64,000 bases of DNA from Chrysomallon squamiferum (lineage: Eukaryota; Animalia; Mollusca): contig CM022669.1 of the NCBI GenBank assembly GCA_012295275.1, positions 3,162,001-3,226,000 on the forward strand, given 5' to 3'. Under the pieces are notes generated by a model. That model did no database searches. It was not told where the DNA came from and worked only from the letters and a program-made list of their open reading frames with translations. Shown piece after piece: positions 13,133 to 64,000 of this stretch. Position numbers and translations under genes: made by a program. The number at the start of each line of letters is the position of its first letter. The first letter of the stretch is position 1.

Positions 13133-13951
13133 GCAGTTTCAGTGCCTTTAACAAGCTTCGGTTATCCTAATGGATGTTTCAGAAGTAACCACAGAGTTGT
13201 CAATAAACGTCAACTTAGTTTTCTTAAACAGAAAATCCAATCACTTCACGTATAAAAACATAAATTAATAGATTAAAAAATATCCTTTGAGCAGCGCAAT
13301 GTAGGAAGGCAATAATGAAGTAACTCCGATGATATTTTGAAAGTAATAAAAAGATTCTCCAATGGTGTTCTGAAGACACTCTATAAATTATAGAAGAAAG
13401 GTTCTCCGACTATGTTCAGAAACAAAAACTTCTGTCCATCTGCAGCACCACAGTGTTGTCTGAAGAAGTATTCACAGATCATGTGATAAAGCTGCCCGGT
13501 GTTAATATTAATGAGCCGCTCTGTTCTCATTGGCTGACAGGAACTGTCACAATTTGAGGGAGTCACTTACTGGTTCTCGTTGTCTCTATTGATCATCTCC
13601 AGCTCTTGATGTCTTCTAATCGGAGTCTAAACACAGGTCAACAAACTGAGCAAACACGTTTGTGCGCGTCTTGCAAGTCCAGAGTCTGACAGCCACTCGC
13701 AAATTTAGTCAATGAAAAACAAATTCCAACATTGTTTCTTGCGAGATTTTCACAATATGTTAAGTATAAATCTACATTGAAATTTACTGTAAAGCCGAGA
13801 TCACGTAGTTTATTTTGATTAGTTCGCTAATAAATAATTGCTAGAACTAAAGCATGGTGATTCTTTTTCAGTTTGTCATACATCAGTGTTGTGAATGTAC
13901 TAAAAATGTCCTTACACACTATCAGCATAAAATTATGATAATTATTATTGT

Positions 13952-38963: not shown

Positions 38964-41879
38964 TGTAAGTATATTGTTGTGCTGTAGGCCTGTTATGGAG
39001 TGGAAGATCCAGAGTATGCCATCACACAGTTAGCTCAGACAACAATGAGATCAGAAATAGGAAAAATGTTACTTGATGCAGTCTTTAGGGAGAGGGAGTC
39101 TCTCAATTATAACATTGTTGGTAAGATTGTTTTTTTTTATTTTCACCTCTGTTATAAATCAGTCATGTTTTATTAAAAGATTTTTTTAAATATTATTTTA
39201 TATGTATATAATTACTATTATTATTATAATTACTTTTATTTTTGCACTTCATCTGTTTCATGAAATATTGTTAGATGTATTTAGACTTTAAATTTTATTG
39301 CCTAAAGATACTAAAAACTTTTTAATTGCAGATCATTTAACATTTTTAATAATTAACTAACTTAAATATAATTATAAAACTTTTGGAGATTTGCTGACTT
39401 ACTAATTCGATCTTGTTACACTTATAATAACAGAACTGTCAGGTGTTTTTAAATATCCTACACAGAAACTACATGATGTGAATTTATATTTACAGAAGCC
39501 ATAAACAAAGCATCTGAAGCGTGGGGTGTGAGGTGTATGCGATACGAAATCAGTAAGTCACAACACAACATTTTTATTACTGATTTAATTTAATTCCATA
39601 TAATATAACTTAGTAACCTTGGTTTTACTTAGGGAAAAAGTATAGTTTTCTCCTTTTTCCTTTATTTCAAAATTGTAATTCTGGGCTGAAAGGTGTTTGG
39701 TTGCTCTCAAAATAACTGTTAAAATAAGTTACTTCTTAAATTAGGAAAAAGGCACAAATAGCACAGTGGTTTGCAATAAACTAAAACTGTTTTTATGTAA
39801 ACAAGAACAGTTTCAGAATCATTTTACTAAACTAAATAAAATTAATGGCAGTTAAGAAAATCTGTGTAATGTTTTGTTTTGTACTTTCTAAGAGATGTCA
39901 CAATGTAATTCTGAATCATACATCAGTCTGTTGTCATGCGCTGTATAAAAACACTGTGTCTTGTATTTTACTGCATAACTCTTCATTAAGCATGACTGTA
40001 CAGACTTGCTGAGTAATAATATTATATTATGTTAGGTCTTATGAAATCTGCTTTAAACTATATCTGACATTTTATTATAAAATATTGTTTATGTTTGTGT
40101 AACAGGAGATATCAAGTTACCACAGAGAGTGCAAGAAGCCATGCAGATGCAGGTGGAAGCAGAAAGAAAGAAAAGGGCAGCCATTTTAGAATCAGAAGGT
40201 TTTTAATTATTATTTTATTCCATTTGAAAAAAAACAAACATATTTTGCTCTGTTCTATATTTATGTTGAAATTATTTAATGAATAAGACTAAAGCTTAAA
40301 TTTTTATTTAAAACTGCTGTTGTTGATTGTGTTTTTATTTGATAATTTGTTTTTGTTTAGGTATACGAGAGGCAGAAATTAATGTAGCAGAAGGTAAAAA
40401 ACAGGCGAGAATTCTCAACTCAGAAGCCAACAAGATGGAACAAATAAATCAAGCTGTTGGTATGCAGTCATTTGTTAAATACTTGTTTCCCTTTTGATTC
40501 TTATTTTTATTTTTTGTAATCTGTAGTTTTTATTAAAACTGTCAATTTCAATTATACTGGTTAGACAAACTGGGAAATACTGGAAAGGTGAAGGTGGCAT
40601 GTGATCACTGTAAAGTATTCTGCAACCCTTTGCTATAAAGATGAACAGATTTGGTCCTCTATAAAAATTGAATGTGCAGAAAGTAAATAATGGTATTGCC
40701 ATTAAATTGCTTTAATTATTATGATTTTCACCTTTAAACATTTTACTTGTATTTCTAGGTGAGGCAGAAGCTTTAATTGCCAAAGCAACAGCAAAAGGAA
40801 AATCAGTCAGCATTGTAGCCCAGGCTTTATCTCATAAAGTGAGTGATTTAAATATCATTATATCCAATATCTTTGATTCAGTACATTCTGCATAATAAAT
40901 GCCAGTACTAATTCGGAAACATTTTACAATATTAGTTTGAATATGAAATCATACTTGATTCACTTGTTTTGTTTTAATTTCAGAATGGTATGAATGCAGT
41001 TTCATTCAATGTTGCAGAGCAGTATGTGAAAGCATTTAGTAACCTGGCAAAGACTGGAAACACCTTGATTTTACCTGCAAGTACAGGTGATGTGTCCAGC
41101 ATTGTAGCTCAGGTAAAATAATTGTATTAAGTATTTTGTTAAATTTTTTGGATTTGATATGGGTTAAAACAAGTCCACGATTGTTTGTGTAGATCTTTTA
41201 AAGTGTCTGTATTTCGTTATATGCCTTAGATCGTTTTATTTTCCATATCACCCATTGTTCCTCAACTGACAATCAAAGGCTGTGTTATCAACTTTCCGTA
41301 ACTACACATATAATAGAATATTACTAAATAAAAAATGTATGTAGTCAAATAAAATATATTTTCTGTCCTTTCCTATTGAACTGTAATTGGAAATTATCAA
41401 TCCAAAGGATTCTATGCTTGAAATGATATAACTATGACAGAATAAAACAAGATTCTTTGCTTAATTTAATTCCTTCAGCTGCTTAAACAAAGAATGTTGT
41501 ATTAATGAAACATATGAACAGTTTTTATTTACTCCATTTGTAAAGCACTGGATCATGAAAAAGATGTTTAGTTTTAATTCCTGAGTGAGAAATGAGTAAA
41601 TATTTGACACTGATGTATTTACATGAATGTTTGCAGGCTATGACAATCTACAAGAATCTAGCAGACAAAAATATCGACACAAATACCGAGGTTGAAGATA
41701 CCATGGACGAGACCACTACGGCAACTGAAACACTATCGTCGTTGTCCCAGTTTGAGAAAATGGAGGAATTCTCATCTCCGACATTTGACGAAATTGACCA
41801 GAGAGATTCTGAAAAGACAGACTCCGCACACAGCAAAATGGACCATAGCGATGACAAAACAACAAAAAAGCCTTCTTGA
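36967..41879 (+). CDS. STOML2: Stomatin-like protein 2, mitochondrial (SPFH/Band 7 family); 11 exons, 390 aa
   Basis: Exons 36967-37011, 37573-37707, 37897-37996, 38453-38511, 38988-39120, 39496-39552, 40106-40198, 40361-40459, 40759-40838, 40984-41112, 41637-41879. All GT-AG and phase-compatible, total 1173 nt. Signature peptides NTVVLFVPQQEAWVVERFGK, YGVEDPEYAITQLAQTTMRSEIGK, MQMQVEAERKKRAAILESEG, VAEQYVKAFSNLAK. Arg-rich N-terminus MIRSFTGRRGLRLLQ fits a mitochondrial presequence. Confidence 0.96.
38561..38612. repeat. 26-bp tandem duplication in STOML2 intron 4
   Basis: agtatctctaacttgt(a/g)aaagatgag twice. Confidence 0.85.
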
Positions 41880-43901: not shown

Positions 43902-46900
43902 TTAGTTCATATTTGGGCAGAGAATTGTGTTCAGTTCATTTATAACAGCCTTGCTATTTTCTCCACACAGAAATGTTTCGTGGTTTCCGTCAAAGTAAGT
44001 AATGTGCACCTTGCCTGTGCAGTGCGGCACCAGTCCATAGTCCAGTGAGAGGGGAGTGGAATTCCGAGGTTCACACTTCAGTCGCAGCAGATAGATATCT
44101 CCTGTAGCAAAATAAAATGAAACATTCTAAATGTAATTCTGGAACTGGAGTTTTTGTTCATCCCACACTAGATGTATTTATAGTCTTTGTTTTAAATTAT
44201 ATTATTTTATTATTATTAACAATTTTATTTTTATTTCATTTTTATATTAATTATTGTTTATTATTTTCATCATCATTACTATTTTTATGATTATTATTAT
44301 TATTAGTATAGTAGTAGTAGTATTTTTATTATTATTAAGATAATTACCCTCAAACTTGTCATTTACTTCATAGTCGTCAATGATCTTTCTGATCTGCACA
44401 GTCTCAATTGCCTTCTTCTCGCGAGTCAGTCTGATAAACTCTTTAGCTGAGTTGTAAACTCCGTCCTTCGCCATCTTCAGATGATTCCTGTTCTGCTGTA
44501 TCCGACTCTTAGCAGCCAGCCATTTTGTTTTCTGAGGACTTGGACTAAAAGCAGATTGGTTTAGCAAATTATCAACTAATTAATGAAAAAAATAATACAG
44601 GCCCTGAAGCTGTATTTAGAAAAGTGTTGGTGTTTTTTAAATCATTACAGGCTATAAATGACTGGAAATGTGAAATGTTTGTAAGACCTATCAATAATGT
44701 TTGTTGTTCTTTTACTTGTCTAAGTAATAATGTACCATGATAAAATCTTTATTTTTTTATTTATTAGTTATTGTTATTGTTAATAATTTTATTATTATTA
44801 TTATTATAGTTTTTTATAAATCAGACCTGTTATGTATATAATAACATTCACAGTATTTAAAGTGTATTGAAAGTTCAGTATTATATTGTATGTGATAACA
44901 ATCACACCTGACAAGAACATTGCCCATACAGATGTCAACAGCCAGAGCTGCCCTAGCAGACAGGTTAGGAATTTGTTCCAAGGCTTCTTGCACCATCTCC
45001 CTGTGTGGGATTGGTCCAAACAGTTCCATGTACCACATTATAGAACCCACCTCCAGCAAATCTGCCACCTGAAACAAGAGATTTTCAGTCCTCATGGTTT
45101 AATGATAAAGTATGAATATTTATGTTTACAGATTTCAAGAGGAAGGATAAAATGCAAACTGGTTGAAATGTTGTCTAAATTAACATTTTATCATGTTTAG
45201 ACAGACCAACCTATTTGATTAACTGCCATTAGTCATATGTTTATTTGTCAGTTTATAACACAGGCCAAGATTTGGTGCACACTTAATACTCTGCCTGTTA
45301 CCTGGATAAAAATGGTATTATCCCACATTGTTATATATTGTAGTGGACCAATAATAAATAAATGAAAGAAAGACTTATAATTTTATTTCATCTAGATAAC
45401 ACAGCACACATGTGTAGGTTTGCATTTTAATTTAGAGCACTATAATTTGGTTAATGCTCATGAACATTAAAATTTCAAGTCTGACGTGCTGGGAATCACT
45501 GTCTGAATTATCACACCACCATCACAAACGTCAACAGCAGTGGACATGTCTGAAGTGCAAAACATGTTTACACTTATTGTCTCCTGATCACCTAAGCACG
45601 TTTCAGCAGATAGCCAACATCATCTAAGAACTGAAGAGGTGTCTTGACTCTCTGCTGTAGCTGATGTTTGAATCTAACTAGTCTGTTTTCCATCTCTCTG
45701 TACACACATTGTGGGATGGAGGAGCGGATCAGTCCGCAAGTGGTGTTCCTGATTTGATCACCAATGGTATCCCAGTGCATCTTCCATTTCAAGTCTGTCA
45801 AACAACAGTCTTCCGTTGTAGAGGTGACTTGTCTAAGAGGGGGACTTGATGGCAATACCCTGACTGCAAACAGCAATAAATACTCCACTTTCCGAAGTCC
45901 AGCCATGGTGCAAGTATTCCATGATTTGACATTCCACAGTAATATATATATATATATATATATATATGCAAATGTCTCAAAAGCTACTATTTGAGTACAC
46001 TCACTATAATCTGGTAACAGTACTTCACAATTGGAATTCTGTTAAAAAATTATTTTTTTAATATCTCACTGCTGTATCAAAACATGTCTCCTTCAAAGTC
46101 CTTCTCCTGCTTAAGAAGAATGTCTCCTTATAATTGAGTAACCATGAAAACGTGCTGCCCACCAGAGTTGTGATTACAACAGTTAGAAGTGAAACCCAGT
46201 CAACACTAGCTGATCATTCCCCACACAGGTGTGTCCAGCTTACTTACTGCTTGACTGCTTTCCAAATTGTATGACTATTGACCATATGACTAATGGGCAT
46301 ATGAGTAATGGGTGGATACCATCTACTTCATTATTATTAAAGGTTATGCAAAGATCAAATAAGGCTGTTTATATTATAAAAATCAATAACCTGAATCCAG
46401 TTTTATAAGAAATAAGAAATGCATTTGGAATATATGTTGATATTAATAAAATCTGTCATTTAACTGTATGTAATGCATACAAACACATTAATATAACATT
46501 GCATATATAACTTCATTATCAGTAAGCTAGAATAACTCACCATGTGATCTGGTGTTCCTTCTGGTATGTGTATCTGTCTAATTCTCTTTGTCTGTCCATG
46601 TGCCCACTCTGGTGATCCATCCAGCATTATTAGGTACTCAACCTAAACATACAACTTAGATCATCTGTATTGATCTTACTGAACTAATGAATGAATATTT
46701 GGTGGATGACAGATGGATCAAGGAAAGTTCAAATTTACCTACATTAAATTTCTGTAAATTCCATTCTTTTTAAATATATATCAGAAACTTTATATTTTAA
46801 TTTTTTCTCAACTTACAGTTTTGTTAGCATCCTGTAGTTGTCTGGCTATTTCAAAAGCAATCATTCCTCCAAATGAGTAACCGAGAATCCGATATGGTCC

Positions 46901-47720
46901 TTGAGGATTCTCTTCTTCTATGCATTTTCTGTAGAAACTAAACAAACCAATAGAGATTTCAATTAACCAAGATCAATGGTCATTAGAAACATTCCCTTCT
47001 CTACTGAAAATTCATGAATTCATAACTTGGCTACAATCGAGAAGCATGGATTTTCTTTCTTTGGTCATTCTGATTATTAAAATTCCAGTAGTTTAATTCT
47101 TATAAATTGTAATCTGTTAAAGAGGAAACCTGACTATGTAGATGACTGTCAATCAGTTACAAGAGAATGTTCAACTTTGTTAAACCAGCAGAGCACACAC
47201 CAATACCTTAAATTAAATCAGCAATGGCCTGAAATGGGAAAGTCTTTTCTAGTATTTTAGTGATTTTAAAATCTGTATTAATTGTGATGGTGATGTTCCC
47301 ACCTGGCAATGTCTTTGACTGATGTCCGAGGAGTACTTGATGACATCTGAACCCCAATACACGGCACCTTCAACTTCATTCCAACAGGTTGTAACAAAGT
47401 AAGAGTGCCTATAAAATATATAATTAATTAAATAAATATGTATGTGTGTATGTATGTATAAAAATATTTTGTATGACCTGTCACATCAAGATAACTCTAA
47501 AAATTGAACAATACTGAAACATATACAAACTAGAAATGCTCTAATAATTTTTGGATAAAATATTTTACCACCTATTAAATAATATATATATAAAATATAA
47601 GTTTTTATTAAGAAACTAATCACCTGTAACGGGGTGAACCATGTAGAGGGGAACACCAGTAGAAATGCTGTTCAATCTGACTAGAGTTGGGTCACTTCTT
47701 GATGGCGTCATGAATATTTT
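43902..47720 (-). other. Thioesterase domain exons of the FAS-like gene, catalytic triad intact
   Basis: PTLVRLNS..PLYMVHPVTG start; Ser in GYSFG (46868-46882); Asp in MLDGSP (exon 46642-46541); His in FDGNHETFL (last exon). These match GYSYG, FDGSP and EGDH of animal FAS TE. Confidence 0.92.
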
Positions 47721-50700
47721 CAGGGCTGGAGTCATTGGGGTACGGGGGGCTCCCACAAACACCAGATCCAGCTGTTTTTGTATAGAGAACGTGTGTCTGC
47801 AAATTTCAACAATTAATTCTTTAAAATAAATATCAGAAAAAGAAGAGTTTATCACAGTGGTGGTAGACTGCTGTGTCATTTGACTAGTTGCTTTAGCACA
47901 GTATCTAAAGTAAGTGTTTGGAGTATGAAGAAATATATATTTAACAAAACACTATAGTTTTATTTTACTGGCAATTAATCTTTGCTAGAAATAAAGGATA
48001 ATTTAGGTAACTAGCCTGAAAGGATGCAGTGAGGCTGACATTTTTATTTATTTATTTATTTCTGCAATATCATTTTCCAATAATAATAAAAGTGAATAAA
48101 TTCATTACAAAGTCCTTCAAGGATGTTTAACATTTCAATTACATCACAAAACAAATTCTTGGTCAGTCAACAAATATTAACAGGAAAGACTGACTGCTAT
48201 AATACACATAATAGACAAATGCATACAAAGTATAAAGAATACGGTTTTATAAATACAAATATTTCAGTACATTCAGCTGCAAGTTTGGTTCTGTTAGTAT
48301 TTATCACTTATGATGTCAGTGAAAAATAATTTAAATCAGGACTTACGGTGTTGTGAAGGAATCAACCAGTCCCTGATTTCTCTTTCTTTGTTGTTTTCTT
48401 TTTACTTTGTCAACAGCAGGCTTTGTTAAAATATTTCTGTTTTAAAAGAAAATGAAACAACCAGAACATTTGCTGTCTTTGTTAAAGTCAATGGGAAGTA
48501 TATTTTGTTGTGAGAAATTAAATCTAACTGAATACTTTATCCTCATCAATTAAATGTGAAAAGTAAGGTGTATTTTTCTTTTCTTTTCTATTGAAAATCT
48601 GAAATGTGAATTATAATAGCTCATCTTCTTCCAGAGGCAGGAACCTGTTTTATTTTTGTATTTTGTTTTTCTTGCCAAATTTATTTCCTTTATTTTTAAA
48701 ATACATGCCATCCACATATTGTTTAAGTTGATAAAATCCAAGAGTTTAAATAAGTTTTCAGTCAGGAAAAAACTCACATTTGTGATACATATTCTGCATT
48801 AACATCTGGTTTGTGAGGTAGAACACTCTGGTATCCAGGATCTCTCTCTATTGTAGCTATTGGTTTTCTGGTTAAATATTTTTAAATGATTGATAACACA
48901 GAGAAAACAATATTTTTAACAGATTATCATTGTTAAAAATAAATAAATAAAAGACTGAGTTTACCTTATTTGTAAGATCAGTCACAGATGTTAGACATTA
49001 AAACAAACCTAACTGAATAACCATTTTCTATTTATATTTGTTAAAACCTTTTGTTAGGTTTAGTTACAAAAAAATAGAGAACTTTTTTAATTAGATTATA
49101 AAATGTGTTTAATAAAAATATTAACAAAATAAAATTTATACATCTTTCATTAGTGCTTGCATATCAGTTAATATTTAGGCACAAAACAATTTTTACAAAA
49201 TTATGAAGAAAAACTTACACACATTCCAGTGGTGTTTTTTCACCTTTGTCAGGTATGGTAAAGGAGAGTACAGGTGTAGATAAAGCTGTCTGTGTGTTCA
49301 CCTTCATCATCTTTTCCAGGTGAGGTACATCTATCAAAGCTGGATACAGTTCAGCAGTTTTGCATGGTGGACTGCTACTGGAAATGAGTGTTTCGTCAAA
49401 TGGTGCAGACTGCAGTACAGAAGATTCCTTGAATACACAAAAAATATTTTAAAACGAAGTGTGAAATATTTCAATGCCAAACTAAGCATTTAAATGACAT
49501 CACAATGACCATACAGATAATGAAAAATAAAGCAAATGCAGCCACAAGCGGGGATATATTTATAAGCAGTTAGTAATTTTTTACATTCATTTTGTCATAA
49601 ACAGAAACACATGCACCATGGCCTTTTATGAAATAGTCATGGGACATTGCGTGGAATTGAAAAGTAATTCATAGTCAGTCATTATCCCAAAAGACTATTA
49701 TTATTATCTACATTTGTACAGACAGCCAAGTCCACAACACTGCAGATCACTTTGTACCAAAAAAATCACTAGACCTCTGTGGACAAGACGCAGATGTAAA
49801 CTGCTAGATCAAACCTGGTGTTGCGGTAAAAAGCTTTCCTGGATTTTCTGTAATGCAGCAACGTCTGACTGGGACAACTCGGTGAAAACATCACCCACGT
49901 TTATTCCTGGCTTGTCTAGCACATGAAGCAGACTCTGCAGCTGTATTGTTTGTGACGATGTCCACGTCTCTGTCAAACTGTAGGTAAATCCTTTCATCTC
50001 AGGGTAGCCTTCTTCAAACAGCTAGACAAACATACAATACATAGAAAGTAATGAGTAAAAAGAATGAATGAAATAAGTATTTCTCAATAGTCAGTATCAT
50101 AAAAAAAGAAAGAATTGTAACTAGTATATTGTGGAATAACAGCAATAATATATATTTTTTTATATAGCCTAAAAAATATGTATTTGCTAATTCTAATTTA
50201 TGAATGAATACTTCGGAACCTTAATTTTAATGTCACGAAAGAAAAAACAGCTTTAAAAGTTGTCATAGAATCTATGGTGTCAGACAAAAGGTAATTGTCA
50301 TATGTTCAGTACAGTATAATTAAAAATACCATCTGGTACATTTAACACATTTAAAACAGATATACTTTCAGATCGGTAGTATTGGATAATTAAGAATAAA
50401 ATCTATTGTATTTATCATAGAAATAAGTGTTCAGATTTCAGAATTTCAGATAAGCAGTCTTCAACGTGTGTTATAATCTAGTCAAATGAATGGAGAGAAG
50501 TGGATTACATTTACCCGTTTGATGGCTTCTGACACTGCATTGTAAACTAACAATTTAACATCATCAACAGATTTCTTCATCAGGGTCACAAAAGCCTGTG
50601 CTGGGTCAACAGCAACAACAGATATGTTTCTGAGGAAATGATTCATTCCAAACTTGTCTGACATGCTGGGAGTCACTGTCTGAATTATCACACCACCATC

Positions 50701-50865
50701 ACAAACAACGTCAACAGCAGTGGACATGTCTGAAATACAAACATGTAGATGAGATCAAACATACAAAACACTTGTAGCCTACAATGCAAAAACACATACA
50801 GACAGTATATCAGACACAAATACATACAAACACAAACACACACACACACACAAACACACACACAA

Positions 50866-50898
<33 letters not shown>

Positions 50899-52421
50899 CA
50901 ACCACACAAACACACACACACCCACACTGTAAAGATCACAGATAACACAAGACTACACACTGTACACACTACACACCACACTGAACACAAAACACACATA
51001 TACACAACACAGATTATGCACTAAATGCAGTGAGAATTAACATTTATTCTGATTTAATGATCTCTGGTTTGTTACGTTCTGAAAACAGCAAACGTTCTCT
51101 GACCTGCTCCACTGTTTTTGATACAGATGTCACATCCTTGACCTATAGTTAGTCGGCGGATCTTTGCAACAATGTTTTTAGCTGATAAATTTCTAACATT
51201 TGGAAACATTGGCATCCAAATCTGCTCGGATTTCAGAATCCCATGTTGCAGTGTAGACCCACACCCAAGCTGATCAGCCAGTGCTATTATGTAAATAGCC
51301 ACAGTATCTGAAAAATGTATATAACATTCATTACATATACATTTAATACTTTCTATCAGTAACATACTTCTGATTGTTTTACTGAGAAAATAAATTACCA
51401 TGTTCTATTGATTAATTTCAAGGAATCTTGCATTCATCAACTGATTTTTCTACAACAGGTAAACAAAATCTTTGATAACCTAGTGGATTAATCTTTCTCA
51501 TTAAAAATTTAAATTATTTATTTTCTTTATATAGTTTTAACATGAATTTTGTTTAAAAAATCAGATTAACAAAAGAGTAATGAATAGGAATTACTGTCTA
51601 ACCTAGAGGTGGGAGAACAACAACAGAGGAAGTTTCTGAAGCCTTTGCAGCATCCAACAAAATGTAAGTAGCCAAAACGAATGGAACCATCATCTGCAAG
51701 TCAGGAACATGACAAGGAATATCTAGTGGAATGTCACAGCAGGATAAACCACCATCTGTAACGATAAAAATATGTTATTTATATGATATAACAGTTAAAA
51801 CAGATACTGATATACATCTGTTTACATCATAGTTGACAAGAAAACTTTAGAAAGATAAAGAGAACTTGGACTGATCACATACTCATATCTGGAAAAGATG
51901 ATCATTCATAAAACTGACTGGTGCTGAGAATTTGAGTAAGACATCAGTGGAAAGGATAACACCTGAAACCAGCTAGAGAAAATATCACTGAGACATTAGA
52001 AGACAATTACTGATGGAGTAAGGATGACAAGCATAAACAAATAAAATGTATAATACTAAAGCAGTTAACTTGATATTTTTTTCTAAAATTGAAAGAAATC
52101 AAATTTCTCACTGACCAATTTCAATTTTTTTCCCCCTTGTCTAATACTTTTAAATTTAAAATGTAATTCTCCACTTACCAGATTCAATAATTATTCCCAT
52201 TAACTGTTTGGATGGGTCTGACTGTTTTGATCCTAAACAGAGCATGACTCGGTTCTGTCTGTGTGACTGAGAATTCAGTGTACTGGTGACTATTACAGAG
52301 ATCAGCAGATCGTCTGTGTGTGTGTCAGATGTCATGTCAGTCTGACATGAGGACTGGTTTAAACTGACTGGTATGTCCGATTTGAACTGCAGAACAAGAC
52401 ATCCAGCCTTTGCAGAGTCCT

Positions 52422-52466
<45 letters not shown>

Positions 52467-55400
52467 TTACTTGTACTATTTGTAGTAGAGGCATTAGTAG
52501 ATGCAAAAACACAAGTATTATTATTATTAATAATAAAAATAATAACAAATGACAGCTCAAATAGTAATAGCATTTACTAGTGATAACAATGAAGAATAAA
52601 ATACATATCAATAAAATAAAAGCAACAATAACTATTATAATACAATTATAATAATTGTAACTATTATAACAAAAACAGAAGAATGTACAAGTCTATCAAT
52701 GATAATAACAGTAGGATTAATACTGATACACATACCTGCAACAGCATCCACCATGGTAAGAATGCTGGCTCCCTGTTTGACCACTTCCAGGTGTTTTACT
52801 GGATTCACCATCACTTTCACCAATGGCCACTTAATATGTTGTCCAGCAAACTCAAGGACAGAGTTGAGAAATTCCAGCCAGCTGTCCTCCCACAAAATCT
52901 CGGTGGTCTCAATTTCAGACAGAGCACTACTGAAATAGTGAAATTTTGTGATGAAATAATAATTCCAAATAATTACTGTATCTGCATAATCATACTGACT
53001 GAATATATTAATGACTTCACTTATTGAGGCCAATGGGACCATTCATCTGAACTTTCATAGAAACATACAAACATACCTCGAGTTGTGAGTGCTCCATTTT
53101 ATGAGTTTTCCGAGTTATGAGCAGCTGCCAGGTCAATTTTATGCTTTTGAGTTGCGAGCCAAAACCCGAGGTTGTTGATACACCGCCGCGTTTTAACAAA
53201 CAACATAACAAAAAATTTTTGCCAAACATGAGTGAGGTGTGCATATAGTCAATATGGCTAAGCAGTACGAGAGTAATACTCTTACTGTACCATACTGAAG
53301 CAGAAGGAGACGATAAAGGCTTTAACTCCAGCCAAAAGCATTAAAATAATTTCTAAGCTGCGGACCTCTGTCCATTAAAAGATGGAGAAACCCTAACCCT
53401 GTACACTTTACATAATTAATTTATTTCTTTACATTCTCTTTTGTTTTGTTTTTTTTATACAATATTCGTCATTTATACATACATTTTTCTTATTTAAATA
53501 TGTTACAAAAAATTGGAGTGGTTTTTGGGGGCTGGGACGGATTAATGGCATTTCAGTTTCATTTGGGAAAACTGATTTGATAAAATGAGTAAACTGAGTT
53601 ACAAGCTTGGTCACGGAACGAATTCAACTCACTAGTCAAGGTACCACAGTATTTTAGAAACCTGTGTGAACAGAAAACAGCCTAACAGCATATTCACACT
53701 AACTGATCATTATGTGATTTTATCTGCTTTTTACCGAGTAGCACTATTTTAAATATTAATATTTATCATGCAAAATACCTGTTCTGCATGTTCTCATTAA
53801 CATCCATGTCATAGCCAGGAATTGTGGGTAAAAACATGTCTGCTGATGGCAGAAGATATTTTCCTCTGAGAAGAATTCCATCTGTTTAAATAAATAAGTA
53901 AGTATGTATGTATGTATGTATGTATGTATGTATGTACATACATAAATAAATAAATAAATAAATAAATAAATGTTGAAAGTATTAATCATCAGTTGTTGTA
54001 CTGACATACAATTTATGAAACATTGTACATTAAATATCATTATTAGTTTTAATAAAAAAAGAATGAAAGACAGATCTTCTGTTATACAACTACGAAATTT
54101 TAAACACCAAATACAGTTAACTATTAATAATTAATAATGTCCATATTTTACATTCTGTAACAACTGTTATCCAGTTGTTTTCATAGCTTTATGAATTTCT
54201 GAATCAGAAGTGTTAATAATGGATTTTCTTATAAGCCTTAACTATTTTGTTTTGTATATAAGAAGGATTATCAACTTTCTTATTATTTATAATAAACAAT
54301 TTGTGTTATTTATCTCCAAAATCAAACTATTACCATCAGGAGAAACACAGAAGCATTTCTGACCAACAAGTACTTCAATGAGTGCATCTTCCACTGTTGC
54401 TGGGGACAGTTTGTCAAAGTTCACGTGTAGATCACTCAAAACAATGGAGTCTAAGGCTTCTTCCTTTCCACTCTGTAACAAGTTTTGTGAAATCTGTTCT
54501 AGGTGGTTTACACATAAAGGAAATACTTCTAAAGCATTTATTCAAGCATGGATTCAAAATTTCATTCATGGTATGTTTTTCTAATAATGCACATCACATG
54601 AGATGTACTTTATATATACATATATATAAAGAGAAAACCATCAGAATATTTAATGGGACACATCTTCATTTCACTGGGATTTTGCTAGTACATCTCATGT
54701 GATCTGGATTAGTAGAAAAACACTTTGATTATTCTGAGATGAGAGGTTCCAAACTCATTCAGCCCCTTTCTGGATTCAAACCCAACATTACTGTTATGTT
54801 TCTACAGTGTGACCCATACATTCACTTCACAGCATTTTAAATCCACATCTTTATTAGAATACCTACACTGTAAAAAATTATTTAAAAAAACAACAATTAC
54901 ATTAGAAGATGGCAGTGAAAGTGTTACAAATTAAGTTAAGAAATCATTTTGAAAATTAATGACAATTTTAAGAGTGAAATATCAAGGTCTGGGAATAAAC
55001 AATAGAGAATATTTGATTTAGAAAAAAGCTGAAATCTGTAAATGTGATGGAAATACAAATGTATGATGTTTTAAAAAGTTTACAAACCAGTTTATAACTT
55101 ATTGCACTGCAAATGTGATAGAGGACAAGAACCAGTGGATCCCAAAGTTTAAAATTATCAATTTCAGGAATTGTGTACAAGTTGTCAATATCATCTTTCT
55201 CTGAAAAGAAAAAAACACATTTATTAAAACTGATTTTTCTCTGCCTTTTCTTTTAGAACCATTGTTATTTCAACAATATGAAAAATCAGACAGCATTTAC
55301 TTCTGTCATTCAAAATTATTTTCACTCACCTTTTTCTATTAAAATATCACCAAAAAAAAAAATAACAAAAACAATCAAAAAACAATAATAATCATAATAA

Positions 55401-58400
55401 TATTCTTAACAACAACATCAACTACTATAAAAACAAGATGATTTTTTTGTTTGTTCTTTTCACCTTGACAGCAGAAGTAGGTCCAGTCAGCAATTGGGTA
55501 AGTAATGATGTGATCCCAGCCAACCAGTGGACTTAAAGGTGGTGCAGTACAGTCCAAAACAGCTGATGTCTTAAAGAGATGGCTTACATTGACATCAAAC
55601 CCTGAAACATAATATTTGACTTGTTATTCATGGAAACACTATTGGATAGATGATTTCCCCTAGACACCTTTACCATAGTTTATATAAATTTATGACTTAT
55701 GACACACAGACACACTACACACAGACACACTACACACATTTATTCAAAGACAATAATACACATCCTCTCAAGTGTTGTCTAACTGGGCAGATTCACATTT
55801 CAGAAATGAGTAGAGTCTTTCTTTATGCTGAAGCTTTAAAATTGAGCAGCAAGTTCTGTGAAAATGAAACATGAGCAGACTGATGATTTCAGAACCGGAA
55901 GGACACCATCATTATGCTTGTAACTTTCAAAATGAACAAAGTACTATATAACAAAGGTCAAAAGATTCAGTGGACCCCAACATTCTTCAAACTGAACAAT
56001 AATGGCAGATATGGAATCCTTGTCATACTGCCTTTTCAATGGTCTATTGAGACATTTGGGTTTGAGGGTTTGATTTGACACAGAATGACCCTATATATTA
56101 TCCTAAATGAAATAACTTTTTAAGAAAAAATCATGACTTGGCAACATTGAATCTAAAACTTTAAAAAAAACTAATGGATCATTTAAATCTAAAGCAGTGA
56201 AATACTTTTAAATAAAGAGTAGCATGCACAGATTGTGTTCCATTTAGATCTGTTAGAATACCACATTACTGGATGTAGTCCTATATCTGTTTGTAATACA
56301 AACAAGCATATTAATAACACAGCTTGCAAATGAAAATAGTTCATGAAATAAATGGAATTCATGACTGCCACATAAATAGTTTGAAAGCTGTAATCCTTGT
56401 ATCTGCCAAATAATACTATTATCTATCAGAAAAAATCATAAATATTATCTGTCAATAAAATCAATGTTTTTGTCATTACCCAGGAGATGCAGTTCAGCTA
56501 GAGTATTCAACAGAGAACATGTATCTGGATTACAATGAACAATTCCTTCACAGATAGCTTCAGTAGCCAGGTCTGACTGACAAGTCAGATTGGATGTTTT
56601 TGTGATCAGTTTATCTGAGGCATTCCACATGTGACTTGACCTTCTCTTCTGCAAACCTTCCTTGAGAAATGAAACCTGACTTCCTCTCCTCTCTGCCAGT
56701 TTCTTTATTTTGGTTCCCTTCTTGTCCAGAAGATCACCACAGCTTATACCCTTTAGTGTTCTGATGGATGTTTTCTCTGGTGACATAATGTAATCATCAC
56801 TTGTCCTGCGAGACTGTGATGGTACAGGACTGAATGGAATGTCAAGATACTTGTCAGCTGCACTGAGTGTAATGAAGACGAGTTTGTCAGGAAGACATAA
56901 GGCAGGTCTCTTCCAGTTGTAGCTGTGTTGTAGCAGCTGACAGAAGTACTCAGCATCACACTGATCATCTTTCACAGAAATCCTTGGCTGGATGATGTGA
57001 GATGATGCACTAAGGAACTGTGGTGATCTGAAACAAAATATTAATCAAAATTAAGTCTGAATTCTTTTTAATATTAAAGGATACTAGATGTTAAATTATA
57101 AAACTGTATGTACATAATTTTGAGAGGCAAAACAATGCCAACATTCAAGGTCTCTTTAGTTAGTGGCAAAGGATTTAATGAATGAAAGTATTATCAGTAT
57201 GCATTAATATTGTTTACTAATGACAATTGCAAACAGAAGAACTTACAGTTTCTTTGGTGATTTGATAATCTTCTTCAGTTTTTGTTTCAGGTTATCCATG
57301 TCTCCCATTAGTTTGCTGTACAGAGGTAGTGTACACTTCAAATCCCTCACAGCATAACCTTAAAATACAAACATGATTACATTATTATATTTTTGACATA
57401 ACATGAGTCATATGCCAAAGAGAATTGGTTTTGTTTTTGTTTTTTAATTCTATTTTTGGACTGTTACTTACTGGGAGGATATCGTATGGGTGGGGGATAT
57501 AAACATATTGGCTGCAAATATTTTTATAATTTTATACACTTCAATGACATGCATTGAAGGCAACACAGAAGAATAAAATGTGAAAATCTGTGACGAAGTA
57601 TTATAAGGAAGGAAGCAAGGATGGAGGGTGAGAAAGACAACGTATAGAAGGATGGAAAAATGGAAAGATGAATGAATGCACAGATTATTTAATGACACTG
57701 GAACACTGACTGTTAGATGTTTTAGACATAGAACAATCTATGAACAATTCAATAAATAATTAATTCAAGAAGCTGTGACAATGAAAACAACCTTTCTGTT
57801 TAAGTCTAGCCAAAATCAGGTCTCTGTTTCTGACATGAAAGGTCATCACAACAGACGTCTGAAGAACTGCAATGACCTTGACCTGTGGACTGAAGACATA
57901 GGCTTCTTCTGCAGTGATGTTAACCAAGTAAGTGTTCAGTTCTGTCATGAAAAATGATTTTTTATTAATAATTACTTAATTTATTTAGTAAATGAAAATA
58001 GAAAAAACTGATGTGATGCTGGTCCTTCCAAATCATAAAGTGTTCTACCAGAAACATTTCTAAAAATTAGAAATCATTTAACTGCTTACAGGTAAATATT
58101 TGTTGCTGATAAATTTTAGGAAAGCTTCTTTTTAGTTTTCTTGTTAATAATAGAAATCTTTCCCATTCCTATGGCTAATGCTGAAAGAGTATGAAGTGCA
58201 AAACAGAAGACAAGGAATACAAGTACTTAGTAACTGTACATGAAAACAGATGTGGAGTTCAAGTTGTTAATATCACCACAATTACTTCATCATTTTTTAG
58301 AATCTAAATATCATTGAAATAAATAGTTACAAAGTATTTACCACAAAGTTTTAGATAACAATCATATCATTGTTGTTATTACCTGTGTTTGTGCTATCAG

Positions 58401-60550
58401 TATGATTATTAACTTGTTCCAGGTATTCACCAATGGTCAAAGCCACCTGTAGACATTCAGCTAGAGAGAGACAACCTGTCAGGTAAGCAGATGCAATTTC
58501 AGACAAACCACAGCCGATGGTGCCTGATATCTCACAGTGTGATGCAACAAGAACAGCCCTCAGTGCTGAAATACAGCAACATAGACAGACACAAGTCGTA
58601 TTCAGATTTGTGACAATGCTGTACAATTAAAATTCATATGAGCATGTCAAGCTCGCTGGTTAATACACAGTGAAAAAGAGTGTAGATGGTTGTTTAATAT
58701 GTTTTAAAATAAATGTTTAAATAATAACAGTCTAAGAATAGTATCAAGAAGAAGAAAAAAGGAGGAAGGGGAAAAGAAGGCAAATAACTCACTAAATAAT
58801 TAGTTAATTAATTAACTAACTAAATACAAAAAATGTCCATTATACTTTCAAAATGTCCTATCCATTAAATCAAATAATAAAATAAAGCCAAAAAAAAGTA
58901 TTGAAAAGAGATGTTTCAATATGTACAAAACTTTAAGAAATTTTCAAACTGTTTTAACTTATCTCTTGAACCATGCTGAGCAGGTTCAGAAAAAGGCTAC
59001 TCCAATTCTGAATTTTAAACTACAGCTGCATTTCCTGTAATTTACACTGCTTTATCTCAATCCAAATGATAAAATGTAAATAAATATTAGAGACCTAAAT
59101 CATCGCAGTGACAAGGTGGTGTAAATATTAACAGGTAAATTGAATGCCTCACCTATGAGACAAGCAGTGCGAGTGACTAAACCAAGTCTGGATAAAGGAG
59201 GTTGCTCCTTGGTCATATTCTCCATTAGAGACCAATCTCCAGTAAGCTGCTGAACAATCTGTAAATAAAATTTTATAATGGACATGTTCTGATGATGTTA
59301 AAATAAATTAACACAAATATACATGCATTCATGTCAAACAAATGAACAAACGAACGAACGAATGTACACACACACATTGTTGCATTTATCTTGGCATACT
59401 GACATTCATATATATGCACAAATAATAATATACACACACATGAATTTGTATAAACACACACACACACACAACGCATATGTTCATGAAAACATACATAGAC
59501 TATTTTTTTAACTAAATCTAATACCTTATCAGAATTTGAGACAGACTGTACAAATGCAGAAAGAGACATGATTTCTTGTTTAATACATCCAGTGGACCAT
59601 GCAATATCATTCAAAATTAACCACAGTTTTGGCGGTGCTTCTTGAACATGGAGGAATTTAGAGGTAACTGAAAGAGTAATGAGTAAAAGTATCAAACAGA
59701 TGACTCAATATTACATAAACTAGACTGGCTTTTATCTGGCTTTCAGAAAAAAAAAATTCCAAACAAAATAGCTTTTTAGAAGTGTATTAATCCGTTATTT
59801 CATTCTTTACTTTTCTTTATACTATAAATATATATTAAGCTCCAATAAAAACAGTTTTCTTTTCATGTATTGTAGTATACGTTGTGTATTTTGCATGTAT
59901 GTTTTATTTTTCTATTTACTGGATGTATGGCCAATTTTTTGATGTTTGAATGTTTGGATACACTCATAAACTTGTTCATTCTTTCTTGTATAATGGTCTA
60001 TGTGTGTATATTATTGAAACTGATTATATTTTAATGTAAAAATATTTAATCTTTCCAGCTATTGAACTAAATGATATGTACTAACCTGTACTATCTGTAA
60101 AAATACTGACAACACCTCTGATTGGCTGTTTTCTGTCACATGACAACAAAGACTTGGTAAAGAAATGAAGTAAATTCTCATCATTTCCATGACTACTGAT
60201 GAAATTACTGATTGTGTTGAAATTATCTTCATTTCTGGCTGTCACAGGAATTATGATTTGGCTTTGAAGGGATTTTTCTGAATGTAAATGGTTGAATAAT
60301 AAAATAAAGTTATATAAATACAGTCATTCAGAAATTAAGATATATTAAAAAGAAAAAGATATATTTCATATAATAGTAATAATGATAATGATAATGTAAT
60401 AATAATAATAATAATAATAATAACAATAATAATATTAAAAGCATCATAAATATTTATTTAACCTAATCTTTGCAAAAAATAAAGTAAACAGGCCAATAAG
60501 AAAATGTCATGAAAAAATTGTCCAGTATTTTCTTTGTCAACAACACTGAC

Positions 60551-60607
<57 letters not shown>

Positions 60608-63336
60608 TATATGTACAGCAGTAATAGTAGTAACAACAATTACAATAAAAATGTAAACTAACAATTATAATAATAACTGTAATAAATTAATAATAGTATT
60701 AATAATAGTAATAAATAAAAAATTAATTTATAAATGATGCTGTTACCAGGTTTCTTTATCTTGTACGGCTGTAAAAGTGCATGTCCATTTACCCCACCAA
60801 ATCCGTAACAGTTGACACCCACCCATCCATCTGGAAGAGCAGTGGGTTGGTCAACTACACAGACTTGTCCATTGACAATGGGCGTGATCTTTGGGTTAGG
60901 GGTTTTGAAATGAAGACTGGCAGGAAGTATCCCATGATGCATGCTCATAATGCATTTGATCAGACCAGCCAATCCTGAAATGATCCCCAGAAAATCAAAA
61001 TATGATTTCATGATATACTTTTCTTCAGTCATCATCTACAAAATCTTAACTGTATTTAATTAATGTCTAATGACACCCAGCATAATGAAATAAGTACATG
61101 TAAGTTATTATTTTTAAGCTACTTAACAGAGATGAAAATGCATCTCATTATAGAACGAATGTTATCTTTTATAATTGTATTAATAGCCTGAGCATCCTCT
61201 GGTGGAGAGAAGCTCAGATAGATAATGGGATGGATATCGCTGGTTCTCTGCCATATATAGGTCTGTTTGCACTGATTCTGGCTAGTATAGTCATTAACAA
61301 TCAGTTCTACAGTCCTTTAGATCAGTCATTTTCAAATTTGCTGGTACCATACCAGTTAGTCATATATATAGCCTACATATTACAAGAAGAAATCAAGACC
61401 CCTATCATAAAATCCCCAACTCAGAAATCTAACACGTTTGAATTGACATAAATAGTAATGTAATTGTCAGCTGATTAACATGTGAGAACTTTTCAGTAAA
61501 TGTCAGATCATATAAGATGGCATCATATAAAGATTATTTTTTAATTTGCTAATCATGGATAAATGAAAGAATATTTAACAGCATCGTGATAATAATGATA
61601 CTAATGGTACAATACATTTATTGTTTAAAGTAAAAGATATCATATTCCCATTGACAGCAAAGCATGTACTCACAAGTCATGCAGTCTTGAAACCATAGAT
61701 GACAAAATAGCTTAATGGGCTAATGAAGATTAATGGGCTAATGAAGATTAATTCAGCAATCCAAACATTCTTGCTGCTATAGTCAAAACAGAAGACTGTA
61801 CCATCTGATTCTTTAAATGATTCATACAAAATACTGTAGATACATGATTCCCCTTAAATGATACTGAAACTTGTAAAACAGGATTGTACCAAAAGTGGAC
61901 ATTTCCCCGATTTCAATGAATTTGTTATCAAAGGTGTTCATATCTAAGGAAGAACTAAATTAATCTTTTTATCAGTTACCTGCAGCAGCCTCACAGTGTC
62001 CCATGTTGCTCTTCACAGACCCTACAAGAAGTTGTTGTTGACGATCCTGACACAATACATCAGCCACTGCCTGGGTTTCAGTTACATCTCCAATCTGTCA
62101 GAAACAACATACAAATGCATCTTTAAAATTGCTATAGCATATAATGTTGAATTTTAACTGCAAATTTTCCCAACAGTGATAAAAGATTCATTTTTGTGAA
62201 TCTTTGGTAACATAACAGGAACTAAATAACGAATTAATTTCCATAATTTTACATGTTTAAAACTTTCGTACTCAGCATTAGAGATATAATTTTGTAATAA
62301 TACTGTGAGAAAGTAAACTGCTACCATTACATGGACTGTTTTTATACGTTACCAGCTTGGGACATTATTTCGACAGAAAAGCACCTACTACGTCCACCTG
62401 CTCCAGACAATAAAAATGGTGGAATAAAAATAAACAATAATCAGTGGTTTGAAAACTGCATTATCGCCTTCACTGAAGATGAAGCAAAATATATCTGTCC
62501 AAAGCTGATAAAGATTTGATTAATTCTGAAGAAAATTAAACAAAATATTAAGAAAACCAAAATGAATAAAATAAACTGTTATTTAAAACCTCCAGTATAA
62601 TAATAACTCCTAAAATGTAAGGTCTTTTCTACCTGTGTTCCAGATCCATGCATCTCTATATAAGCTAGATCTTTAGTCTTAATTCCAGTTCTTGTGTAAA
62701 TTGTTTGGAGCAAAAACTTCAGAGAATGAAGGCCTGGGTGAGTAATACCTGCAAGTTGAAAGAAAACAAGGCTAACATTGCTTACTTTTTAACATCAAAT
62801 GAAGGGTTAAGAATCAAAGTAGTGTGTAGCCTCAAACAATTACAAAATGAGTTTGGATCAAACAAGAGTGGAGATTAATAATATCAGACAATGACAGAAC
62901 TGTCTGAACTAATCAGATTTGACTGCACTCATGAAAAACATCTTAAATATTCCTGTTACGGTTTTTTGTTTGTTGATTTGTGTTTGTGTTTTTGTTGTCG
63001 TTTCTTTTTCTTTTTTTTAAATACTTAAATAATTTTAACAGTATTCAGTCATTTTAAAAATGGTTTGTTAAACTATGTTTTTTATATCTCCTTAGTAAAA
63101 CTAATTTTTTTTAATCATTAAATCATTTTTTTTTAAATGAGTTTCTTAGAACACCAAGACACATTTTAATATTAATGGTTATTAGATGTGGAAGTTTTTA
63201 TAACAATAAACTGGTTAAATGAAACCTGATGACAGTCTAATACATCAGTAACACATTACCTTCCTCTTTATAACCATCACAGTTAATGGCTATGTCTATC
63301 AGTGATGCATAAATTCTTCTACAGGTAGACTCAGAG
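43902..63336 (-). CDS. Divergent animal fatty-acid-synthase-like type I megasynthase (5'-partial): KS - inactive AT - inactive DH - inactive ER - ACP remnant - long linker - TE
   Basis: 31 GT-AG exons in transcription order: 63336-63260, 62748-62633, 62094-61980, 60974-60747, 60277-60086, 59667-59525, 59258-59153, 58565-58383, 57941-57792, 57358-57247, 57027-56480, 55601-55464, 55200-55088, 54472-54334, 53881-53779, 52929-52736, 52419-52179, 51755-51603, 51307-51104, 50729-50515, 50021-49815, 49427-49219, 48867-48778, 48436-48347, 47904-47624, 47408-47303, 46937-46817, 46642-46541, 45068-44908, 44544-44348, 44101-43902 (TAA). About 1740 codons. All junction phases agree except for one extra base in exon 52419-52179. 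FAS hallmarks: RRIYASL..NCDGYKEEG, YIEMHGSGTQIGD, GSVKSNMGHCEAAAG, LSPLVGWDH, LWEDSWLEFLN, GPYRILGYSFG. The start and KS active Cys lie beyond the window. Confidence 0.9.
45203..46320 (-). mobile_element. Decayed DNA transposon, possibly Mutator-like, in a TE-domain intron
   Basis: Perfect 14-bp inverted pair ccattagtcatatg (45226-45239) / catatgactaatgg (46283-46296) within longer imperfect inverted ends. ORF 45592..45906 ends VYREMENRLVRFKHQLQQRVKTPLQFLDDVGYLLK, which resembles C-termini of invertebrate MULE-type transposases (recalled, unverified). Confidence 0.45.
50515..52330 (-). other. Degenerate enoylreductase-like exons
   Basis: Colinear with FAS ER: LMGII, VPFVLATYILL, IIALADQLGC, TIGQGCDICI, FGMNHFLRNISV. 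The NADPH-binding GGVG loop is replaced by PPLDTV. Confidence 0.75.
50785..51015. repeat. Degenerate (CA)n tract, intronic
   Basis: caca/caaa units. Confidence 0.9.
53072..53651. mobile_element. Tc1/mariner-Tigger (pogo)-like non-autonomous element in an intron
   Basis: Right end gagttacaagcttggtcacggaacgaattcaactcactagtcaaggtaccacag followed by TA; left end tacctcgagttgtgagt is a decayed inverted counterpart. Subterminal ggctgggacggattaatggcatttc is typical of Tigger-type elements as I recall them. Confidence 0.65.
56480..59667 (-). other. Catalytically dead acyltransferase (MAT)-like exons
   Basis: GMGTQW position reads NDIAWS; GHSLG reads GCGLS (58501-58515); the conserved Arg position reads LTIG; AFHS reads PLYS (57315-57326). 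Flanking fold residues still align (AYLTGCLSLAEC, LKKIIKSPK, AEYF, LHLLG). Confidence 0.85.
60747..63336 (-). other. C-terminal half of the ketosynthase domain (4 exons)
   Basis: EMHGSGTQ and KSNMGHCEAAAG retain both catalytic His and the Lys; LHFKTPNP and GVNCYGFGGVNGH are conserved. Confidence 0.93.
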
Positions 63337-63742
63337 CTGGAAAAAATATAAATATTTTATAATCCTACAGCACACAGTAATAGTAATATCCTATATAACT
63401 AAATCATTACATATGAAGAATTATTAGGTGTCATCATTTCATTTTTGCATTATATGGCTTATAAATTTAAATTAAATTACACATACACATACAAAGGACT
63501 TTAAGGGATATATTGTTAATTTGCACTGTAAGTTTTGTTCCTTTCATTTCTAATCATTTAAAATGAAAAATCACAACTGGGACCGATATAAAATTAGTCT
63601 GTTAACCAGTGTGTACAGTTATAAAATAGTGTGTTGTTTAGAATGTGGTAAGGGTCATGCTGTAGTTACTGAAAAAGCTGATTAATTTCATGTCAAAAGG
63701 ATGATGACCTAAAAGTTTGAGGCTTGTATTACAACATATCTC

Positions 63743-64000
63743 TGTACCATGTGTCACAGCACCAAGTATCATTGCAACATGTTTCAGTGTACCATGTGTC
63801 ACAGCACCAAGTATCATTGCAACATGTTTCAGTGTACCATGTGTCACAGCACCAAGTATCATTGCAACATGTTTCAGTGTACCATGTGTCACTGGACCGA
63901 GTATCATTGCAACATGTTTCAGTGTACCATGTGTCACTGGACCGAGTATCATTGCAACATGTTTCAGTGTACCATGTGTCACTGGACCGAGTATCATTGC
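63743..64000. repeat. 45-bp intronic minisatellite, at least 5.7 copies, runs off the window
   Basis: Unit tgtaccatgtgtcac(agcaccaa/tggaccga)gtatcattgcaacatgtttcag starting at 63743, 63788, 63833, 63878, 63923, 63968. Confidence 0.95.

Follow-up and report, generated by a model that had tools for sequence, protein, structure and literature searches.

The question raised by this locus is what a FAS-like gene can still do when only its KS and TE look catalytic. It lies in a 64,000-nucleotide stretch of Chrysomallon squamiferum DNA (the window), for which a sequence-only reading had described a hollowed-out megasynthase. The gene was modeled on the minus strand with 31 exons running from 63336 to a stop codon at 43902 (5,126 nt in total), with AG at 31 of 31 acceptors and GT at 30 of 30 donors, which matches the coordinates, exon count and canonical splice sites given in that reading. 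Its figures of about 1740 codons and one extra base had to be revised. The assembled frame of the uncorrected window sequence halts at 52339, and an open frame of 1,707 codons is obtained after three single-base adjustments taken from RNA. All three indels are missing from the RNA contig X1; relative to the window, the RNA drops one base at 51212 and gains one at 51258 within exon 19, where the window garbles approximately 16 residues. At the indel sites, the Gigantopelta relative described below has the same reading as the RNA. The three indels are likely assembly errors; less probably, the individual that was sequenced carries a broken allele.

Matching sequence data were obtained from four RNA runs of one study (X1–X4, assembled contigs) and from a further run of unrecorded kind (X5). 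A 2,608-nt RNA contig spans exons 3–11 in at least seven pieces, with exons 7 and 10 fitting the gaps, and 943 nt of it precede exon 3, which places approximately 750 nt of transcript outside the window, before exon 1. A 3,888-nt RNA contig contains exon 16 onward among the pieces listed, and exons 15 and 27 correspond to its loose ends. Eight CT..AC joints were located between 47796 and 52179 among those listed. The gene is expressed as spliced RNA, and the contigs cover it. The sequence-only reading would have been overturned by hidden exons supplying intact AT, KR and ACP; the RNA joints between 47796 and 52179 give no hidden exon between the ER and TE exon 25. A candidate exon near 51960 was ruled out, since the RNA joins 52179 straight to 51755. 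A six-frame HMM scan also gave no hidden KR, ACP or pseudo-MT exon, a weak result because the same scan missed the ER. The features of the gene are collected in Table 1.

Table 1. Features of the FAS-like gene, in window coordinates.
Feature	Position	Strand	Basis
KS C-terminal half, exons 1–4	60747..63336	minus	Pfam PF02801 and PF16197; motifs; RNA contig
KS-AT linker domain, exon 5	60086..60277	minus	RNA piece; position in family alignment
Dead AT, variable insert with RRxS (exon 11) and post-AT linker, exons 6–12	55464..59667	minus	Profile match; site table
Shortened dead DH, exons 13–16 and start of 17	52390..55200	minus	Profile match; site table; folded in relative's model
Extra base in assembly	52411..52418	minus	X1 has 7 nt, window 8; Gigantopelta relative reads through in frame
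Dead ER, exon 17 through the start of 21	49950..52389	minus	Profile match; MDR-fold model match; RNA joints
Compensating -1/+1 indel pair, exon 19	51211..51258	minus	Absent from RNA
Conserved three-helix block (exon 21), at the KR-ACP location	49815..49949	minus	Identity; predicted helices
Ser/Thr-Pro-rich linker, about 155 residues, exons 22–24 and start of 25	47720..49427	minus	Predicted disordered
Intact TE and stop codon, exons 25–31	43902..47719	minus	Pfam PF00975; triad; fold match

A search with the KS exon gave a single protein from 14 candidates, Gigantopelta aegis XP_041375027.1 (1,945 aa), which the window exons match in order along its length with exon-level identities of 39–81%. 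The last exon gave 45 matches, many of them unrelated multi-stretch ones, and its single-stretch matches and clusters came from Haliotis, Sinanodonta, Pecten, Pinctada, Solemya, Crassostrea, Mytilus and Octopus. Members from Potamilus, Patella and a third Haliotis emerged from a profile search, and behind them, at far lower score, canonical FAS, including one that Gigantopelta also possesses (P0188). The same architecture was found across three molluscan classes. Residue counts given below refer to 13 rows, i.e., the window and 12 relatives from gastropods, bivalves and octopus, with the rows covering each site as the denominator. In a KS tree of 15 rows, from which mo-clades 1–3 were left out, the window (a KS half filling 43% of the columns) is sister to XP_041375027.1 with support of 96/95; both belong to a 100/100 clade that is separate from FAS.

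The source data of Lin et al. 2024 (PMC10764717) label XP_041375027.1 as clade4, with HMM scores of 442.2/265, where the clade criterion is an FAS score of 400–600 that exceeds the PKS score. This protein is the closest relative of the gene, which is therefore assigned, on sequence comparison, as a new member of AFPK mo-clade 4, a published yet uncharacterised family. According to that paper, mo-clade 4 is present in all molluscan classes surveyed, InterPro predicts only KS-AT-TE for it, and its biochemistry is given as unknown. On the window exons, Pfam likewise detected KS and TE, with AT only weakly (E 0.12), so that the annotatable KS-AT-TE is shared with mo-clade 4 as well as the tree position. 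Among the relatives, Pfam detected KS, weak AT and TE, some with weak ADH_zinc_N or PLAT, and none with KR or PP-binding. Sinanodonta P0016 and P0046 are two near-identical clade-4 proteins, possibly a recent duplication. Several mollusc genomes have clade-4 proteins annotated as "fatty acid synthase", and these can be mistaken for FAS.

These data bear on whether the gene is simply decaying. A pseudogene would explain the three single-base indels of the assembly, but the RNA contig is free of all of them and the architecture is common to relatives in 12 species. Furthermore, within-species differences were compiled from other samples as a best-supported subset (the best 40 of 225 rows and all 11 rows of a second listing); among the 48 listed, 20 are exonic, and 13 of these 20 are synonymous, against 22.6% expected (p = 6e-5). 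Decay is accordingly a next to negligible explanation. The sequence-only reading had allowed for it in case neither transcript nor orthologs existed; both were found, which effectively refutes it for the family. The gene is real, expressed and under selection.

In the KS, both catalytic His noted by the sequence-only reading were located, in HGSGT at 62650 and KSNMGH at 62013, and the FGFGG-type loop reads CYGFGG. The N-terminal half with the Cys position falls beyond the window end; the Cys is present in nine of nine relatives covering the site, and both His in all ten rows covering theirs. In the AT, the nucleophile motif reads GCGLSE at 58515, where Gly replaces the nucleophile, and the Arg and His positions are changed too, so that the active cis AT of animal type I FAS (GHSxG, Arg, His) is absent from the window product. 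Across clade 4, the nucleophile position is Gly in 11 of 11 rows covering it, the Arg is unconserved, and the His occurs in Pecten only. In a model of the oyster KS-AT region, pLDDT lies at 73–94 in most blocks of ten residues across the AT core; the model's best match is FAS KS-MAT, yet the TM score of 0.50 and rmsd of about 19 make the domain placement unreliable. Exon 11 (56480–57027) inserts approximately 100 residues with three RRxS motifs into the dead AT, four such motifs being found in Gigantopelta, and the insert is missing from the other aligned relatives. It is possibly a kinase-regulated loop; exon 11 alone as a query found no homologue among 488 candidates, which is a weak test. 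In the abalone (Haliotis) members P0032 and P0080, a PLAT/LH2 domain lies between KS and AT, which hints at membrane or lipid association.

The Asp motif of the DH reads FLNSVLE at 52871 (Asp to Asn), and its His motif is not alignable; across clade 4, the Asp is kept in 3 of 12 rows covering the site, again with no alignable His motif. The Gly-rich NADPH motif of the ER is replaced by LPPLDT (LPPL at 51615), and the Gly motif is lost in 13 of 13 rows. The key-residue losses that the sequence-only reading had ascribed to AT, DH and ER thus hold. The RNA joints show that the ER is joined directly to the DH, with neither pseudo-MT nor pseudo-KR between them. The last 1,016 residues of the relative were modeled (mean pLDDT 69.7): DH and ER appear as folded domains, and three short helices, a stretch predicted as disordered and the TE follow. 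The ER of this model matches the MDR fold with Z 18.9 and rmsd 4.0 over 246 aligned residues. When FAS domain profiles were compared with the 13-row clade-4 profile, KS (100%), AT (99.5%), post-AT (96.3%), DH (95.5%), ER (98.5%) and TE (100%) were recovered; pseudo-MT, pseudo-KR, KR (0.35%) and ACP each fell below 1% probability. The absence of KR and pseudo-MT described earlier is consistent with this result. An ACP lacking GxDSL had also been described: no GxDS[LIMV] motif occurs in the spliced window product, as stated, but the presence of an ACP was overstated, since none is detectable.

The helical block that follows the ER is 70% identical to Gigantopelta, contains no conserved Ser, and gave nothing significant against profiles of FAS ACP, ER C-terminus, KR and pseudo-KR compared with shuffles; in fold searches with the entire C-terminal model, TE matches took up the results, and these searches are not informative on the block. 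A cryptic autonomous synthase, in which this block would be a divergent ACP and the AT would work with a shifted nucleophile, can be proposed from the three helices predicted at the ACP location, from profile shuffles that equalled the real score in only 1–3 of 50, and from Pinctada P0010, where an LGIDSL-like word occurs at residue 965 just after the block. That word was found in one of ten proteins scanned, and its region scores merely 2.5 bits against the ACP profile. The ACP match probability below 1%, by-eye alignments that differ in register, the missing Ser, and an AT with invariant Gly and unconserved Arg and His make such a synthase highly improbable.

Downstream of the block, the linker is predicted to be disordered, with pLDDT below 50 at residues 518–671 of the relative's model. 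The TE triad announced by the sequence-only reading is complete, with GYSFG at 46882, LDGS at 46624 and GNHE at 43988, and its Ser, Asp and His are kept in 13 of 13 rows. The relative's TE model superposes on human FAS TE with Z 31.4 and rmsd 2.4 over 269 aligned residues. As a whole, the earlier description was confirmed in part: the architecture stands on motifs, RNA and profiles, and the codon count, number of indels and wording on the ACP do not.

Identity to Gigantopelta is 67% for KS, 72% for TE, 57% for AT, 68% for DH, 66% for ER and 70% for the helical block, and drops to 28% and 38% in the AT insert and the linker, respectively. The dead domains (57–68%) are hence about as conserved as KS and TE (67–72%) at this distance. 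Across classes, the clade-4 AT, DH and ER drop to 24–44%, far under most FAS values across phyla (52–73%). Because they are conserved near the KS/TE level against Gigantopelta but looser across classes, these domains are, on sequence grounds, kept as folds and not as active sites. That they are under selection, as proposed earlier, is supported by the RNA, the relatives in three molluscan classes and the per-domain conservation. Between molluscs, the clade-4 KS shares 44–61% with Gigantopelta, compared with 65–73% for FAS KS across phyla; the clade-4 TE (35–42%) is about equal to FAS TE (41–43%). A KS that is looser than FAS KS beside an equally constrained TE fits a TE-centred role and counts against a carrier-free enzyme of the kind considered next.

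The FAS cycle needs AT, ACP and KR. With no working AT and no detectable ACP or KR, the protein cannot run this cycle; the earlier statement that it cannot be an autonomous synthase is supported by the same RNA, relatives and conservation data. As no chain can be loaded, carried or reduced in cis, the residue-level anatomy narrows the function of mo-clade 4 to three testable options. The most likely mechanism, to which we assign a probability of roughly 0.45, is a carrier-independent KS-TE acyl-thioester enzyme acting on acyl-CoA upon a dead scaffold. The KS Cys, known from the relatives alone, would take an acyl chain directly from acyl-CoA, and the KS would transfer this chain a single time. 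Its acceptor would be malonyl-CoA, in one unreduced condensation, or, as in CalA3, a small amine or alcohol. The TE on its long flexible tether would then hydrolyse or hand on the product thioester, while keeping the KS folded and dimeric would fall to the dead AT-DH-ER. A cytosolic location is probable, since the KS of full-length relatives begins within approximately 10 residues of the first Met. This carrier-free reading is supported by the lack of an ACP in Pfam and profile comparison and of a hidden exon, by the kept catalytic residues of KS and TE, by the conservation of the dead domains, by the CalA3 precedent described below, and by mammalian KS, which can load from acyl-CoA in vitro. 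Against it, such direct loading in murine FAS is more than 1,000-fold less efficient than via MAT (PMC6954729); the Cys and the ACP-contact points discussed next also rest on relatives.

The human FAS KS contacts ACP via H68 and K70 (PMC12058526). Both are replaced in 6 of 6 aligned clade-4 KS, in a region outside the window, whereas six FAS all retain K70, and five of them H68; the net charge of KS residues 40–80 is −2 to −5 in clade 4 versus +1 to +6 in FAS. Among the roles suggested earlier, a KS-TE acting on acyl-CoA fits best, and a FAS partner is less favoured with these basic residues lost in all six. Such a partner would act in trans on canonical FAS or another carrier protein, its TE (perhaps its KS) releasing, trimming or diverting acyl-ACP chains and its dead domains docking or pairing with FAS. 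A precedent is the stand-alone thioesterase II of vertebrates. The clade-4 TE is as constrained as FAS TE, superposes on the human domain and hangs from a predicted flexible linker of approximately 155 residues, and Gigantopelta has a canonical FAS that could be served. Against it, apart from the lost contacts, R137 and R143 are changed in a helical region lying at the KS dimer interface or close to it. We regard this partner role as somewhat unlikely, though as the main competitor.

Further losses in the clade-4 KS are the DPQ motif and R143 (6 of 6) and R137 (5 of 6), so that this KS may be impaired rather than re-purposed, a point against the carrier-free enzyme. This bears on the third option, mainly an acyl-CoA thioesterase or regulatory pseudo-enzyme, in which the TE alone would turn over, the KS would bind acyl chains to sense or sequester them, and regulation would be the role of the S/T-P-rich linker and of the RRxS insert. 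The loss of conserved KS motifs, the relaxation of KS but not TE relative to FAS, and the kinase-type motifs of linker and insert speak for it. The KS Cys, both His and E333 are nevertheless invariant in the relatives covering them; binding by itself does not obviously call for that much, and we consider this option unlikely.

Compared with known systems, the order KS-LD-AT-DH-ER...TE is shared by the animal type I FAS of human and Gigantopelta (P0188) and by EcPKS1/2 (mo-clade 1), the C-terminal Ser-Asp-His TE is that of type I FAS from animals, and the best PDB sequence and fold matches of clade-4 proteins are FAS. Unlike animal FAS, they have no active AT, DH or ER and no detectable pseudo-MT, pseudo-KR, KR or ACP, and they are about 1,840–1,980 aa long versus about 2,500. 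PMC10764717 describes mo-clades 1–3 as being without TE, and PMC11831141 gives EcPKS1 and EcPKS2 alone as characterised biochemically. For mo-clade 4, the available text of PMC10764717 lists the AT without comment on activity and the rest as without predictable similarity; the present analysis goes beyond this account in showing a dead AT, a middle region recognisable as dead DH-ER, and no detectable KR or ACP. In the literature searched, i.e., that outside subscription journals, "mo-clade 4" matched PMC10764717 alone among the five papers listed, and neither a function nor an account of the dead-domain anatomy was found for it in the text available. The earlier claim that the architecture is not described therefore falls for the family, already published as KS-AT-TE, and stands for the dead-domain anatomy, which appears new relative to the literature found.

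That claim is further restricted by bacterial CalA3 (calcimycin), a known ACP-less PKS with a working KS on dead AT, DH and KR. As described in PMC10006239, its AT Ser is changed to Gly, its KS forms an amide or hydrolyses, and its truncations could not be purified. It resembles clade 4 in lacking ACP, in its dead AT (Gly) and DH, in a kept KS triad (the Cys from relatives) and in dead domains serving as scaffold; it differs as a bacterial modular PKS with a docking domain, a dead KR, and no ER or TE. The resemblance is to be taken as analogy, not homologous membership. CalA3 is proposed to take its chain from the ACP of another protein, the upstream module (PMC10006239), which by analogy favours the trans-carrier version, and with it a FAS partner, over the carrier-free one. 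Bombyx p260/p270 are insect homologues of animal FAS for which a title cited in PMC3230841 reports palmitate transfer to peptides; they are likened here from the title only.

The wider picture of the carrier-free reading, an ancient pan-molluscan lipid enzyme derived from a gutted FAS, with carrier-free KS-TE, dead AT-DH-ER scaffold and one-step acyl-CoA chemistry, is tentative and somewhat short of an even chance. If true, ACP-less synthases such as CalA3 would have their first animal counterpart in it, and a pan-molluscan lipid could be its product. Such an enzyme would also represent a new reaction type in animal lipid metabolism, and a long-lived natural megasynthase retained mostly as scaffold.

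No biosynthetic neighbour was found among the seven ORFs scanned in the window, the 5' side of the gene lying outside it. A plus-strand gene is convergent with the FAS-like gene, its 3' end lying at 40978–41876 with a Band_7_C exon at 40978–41118, and is stomatin-like by domain. A 407-codon ORF on the minus strand (11918–13138) encodes a CBM_14 chitin-binding domain and, behind it, a tail rich in Thr, Pro, Lys and Arg. The intron that separates exons 28 and 29 contains, at 45479–45567, an 89-nt near-copy of the exon 20 acceptor and 5' part, and a 313-nt RNA-library contig covers 45398–45727 unspliced. High-copy intron repeats occur at 53020–53600, 55570–56220 and 45760–46410, with a summed contig depth of 1,900–22,000 in run X5 versus about 50–90 elsewhere. 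A 39-nt tandem repeat occupies 63730–64000 in the intron upstream of exon 1.
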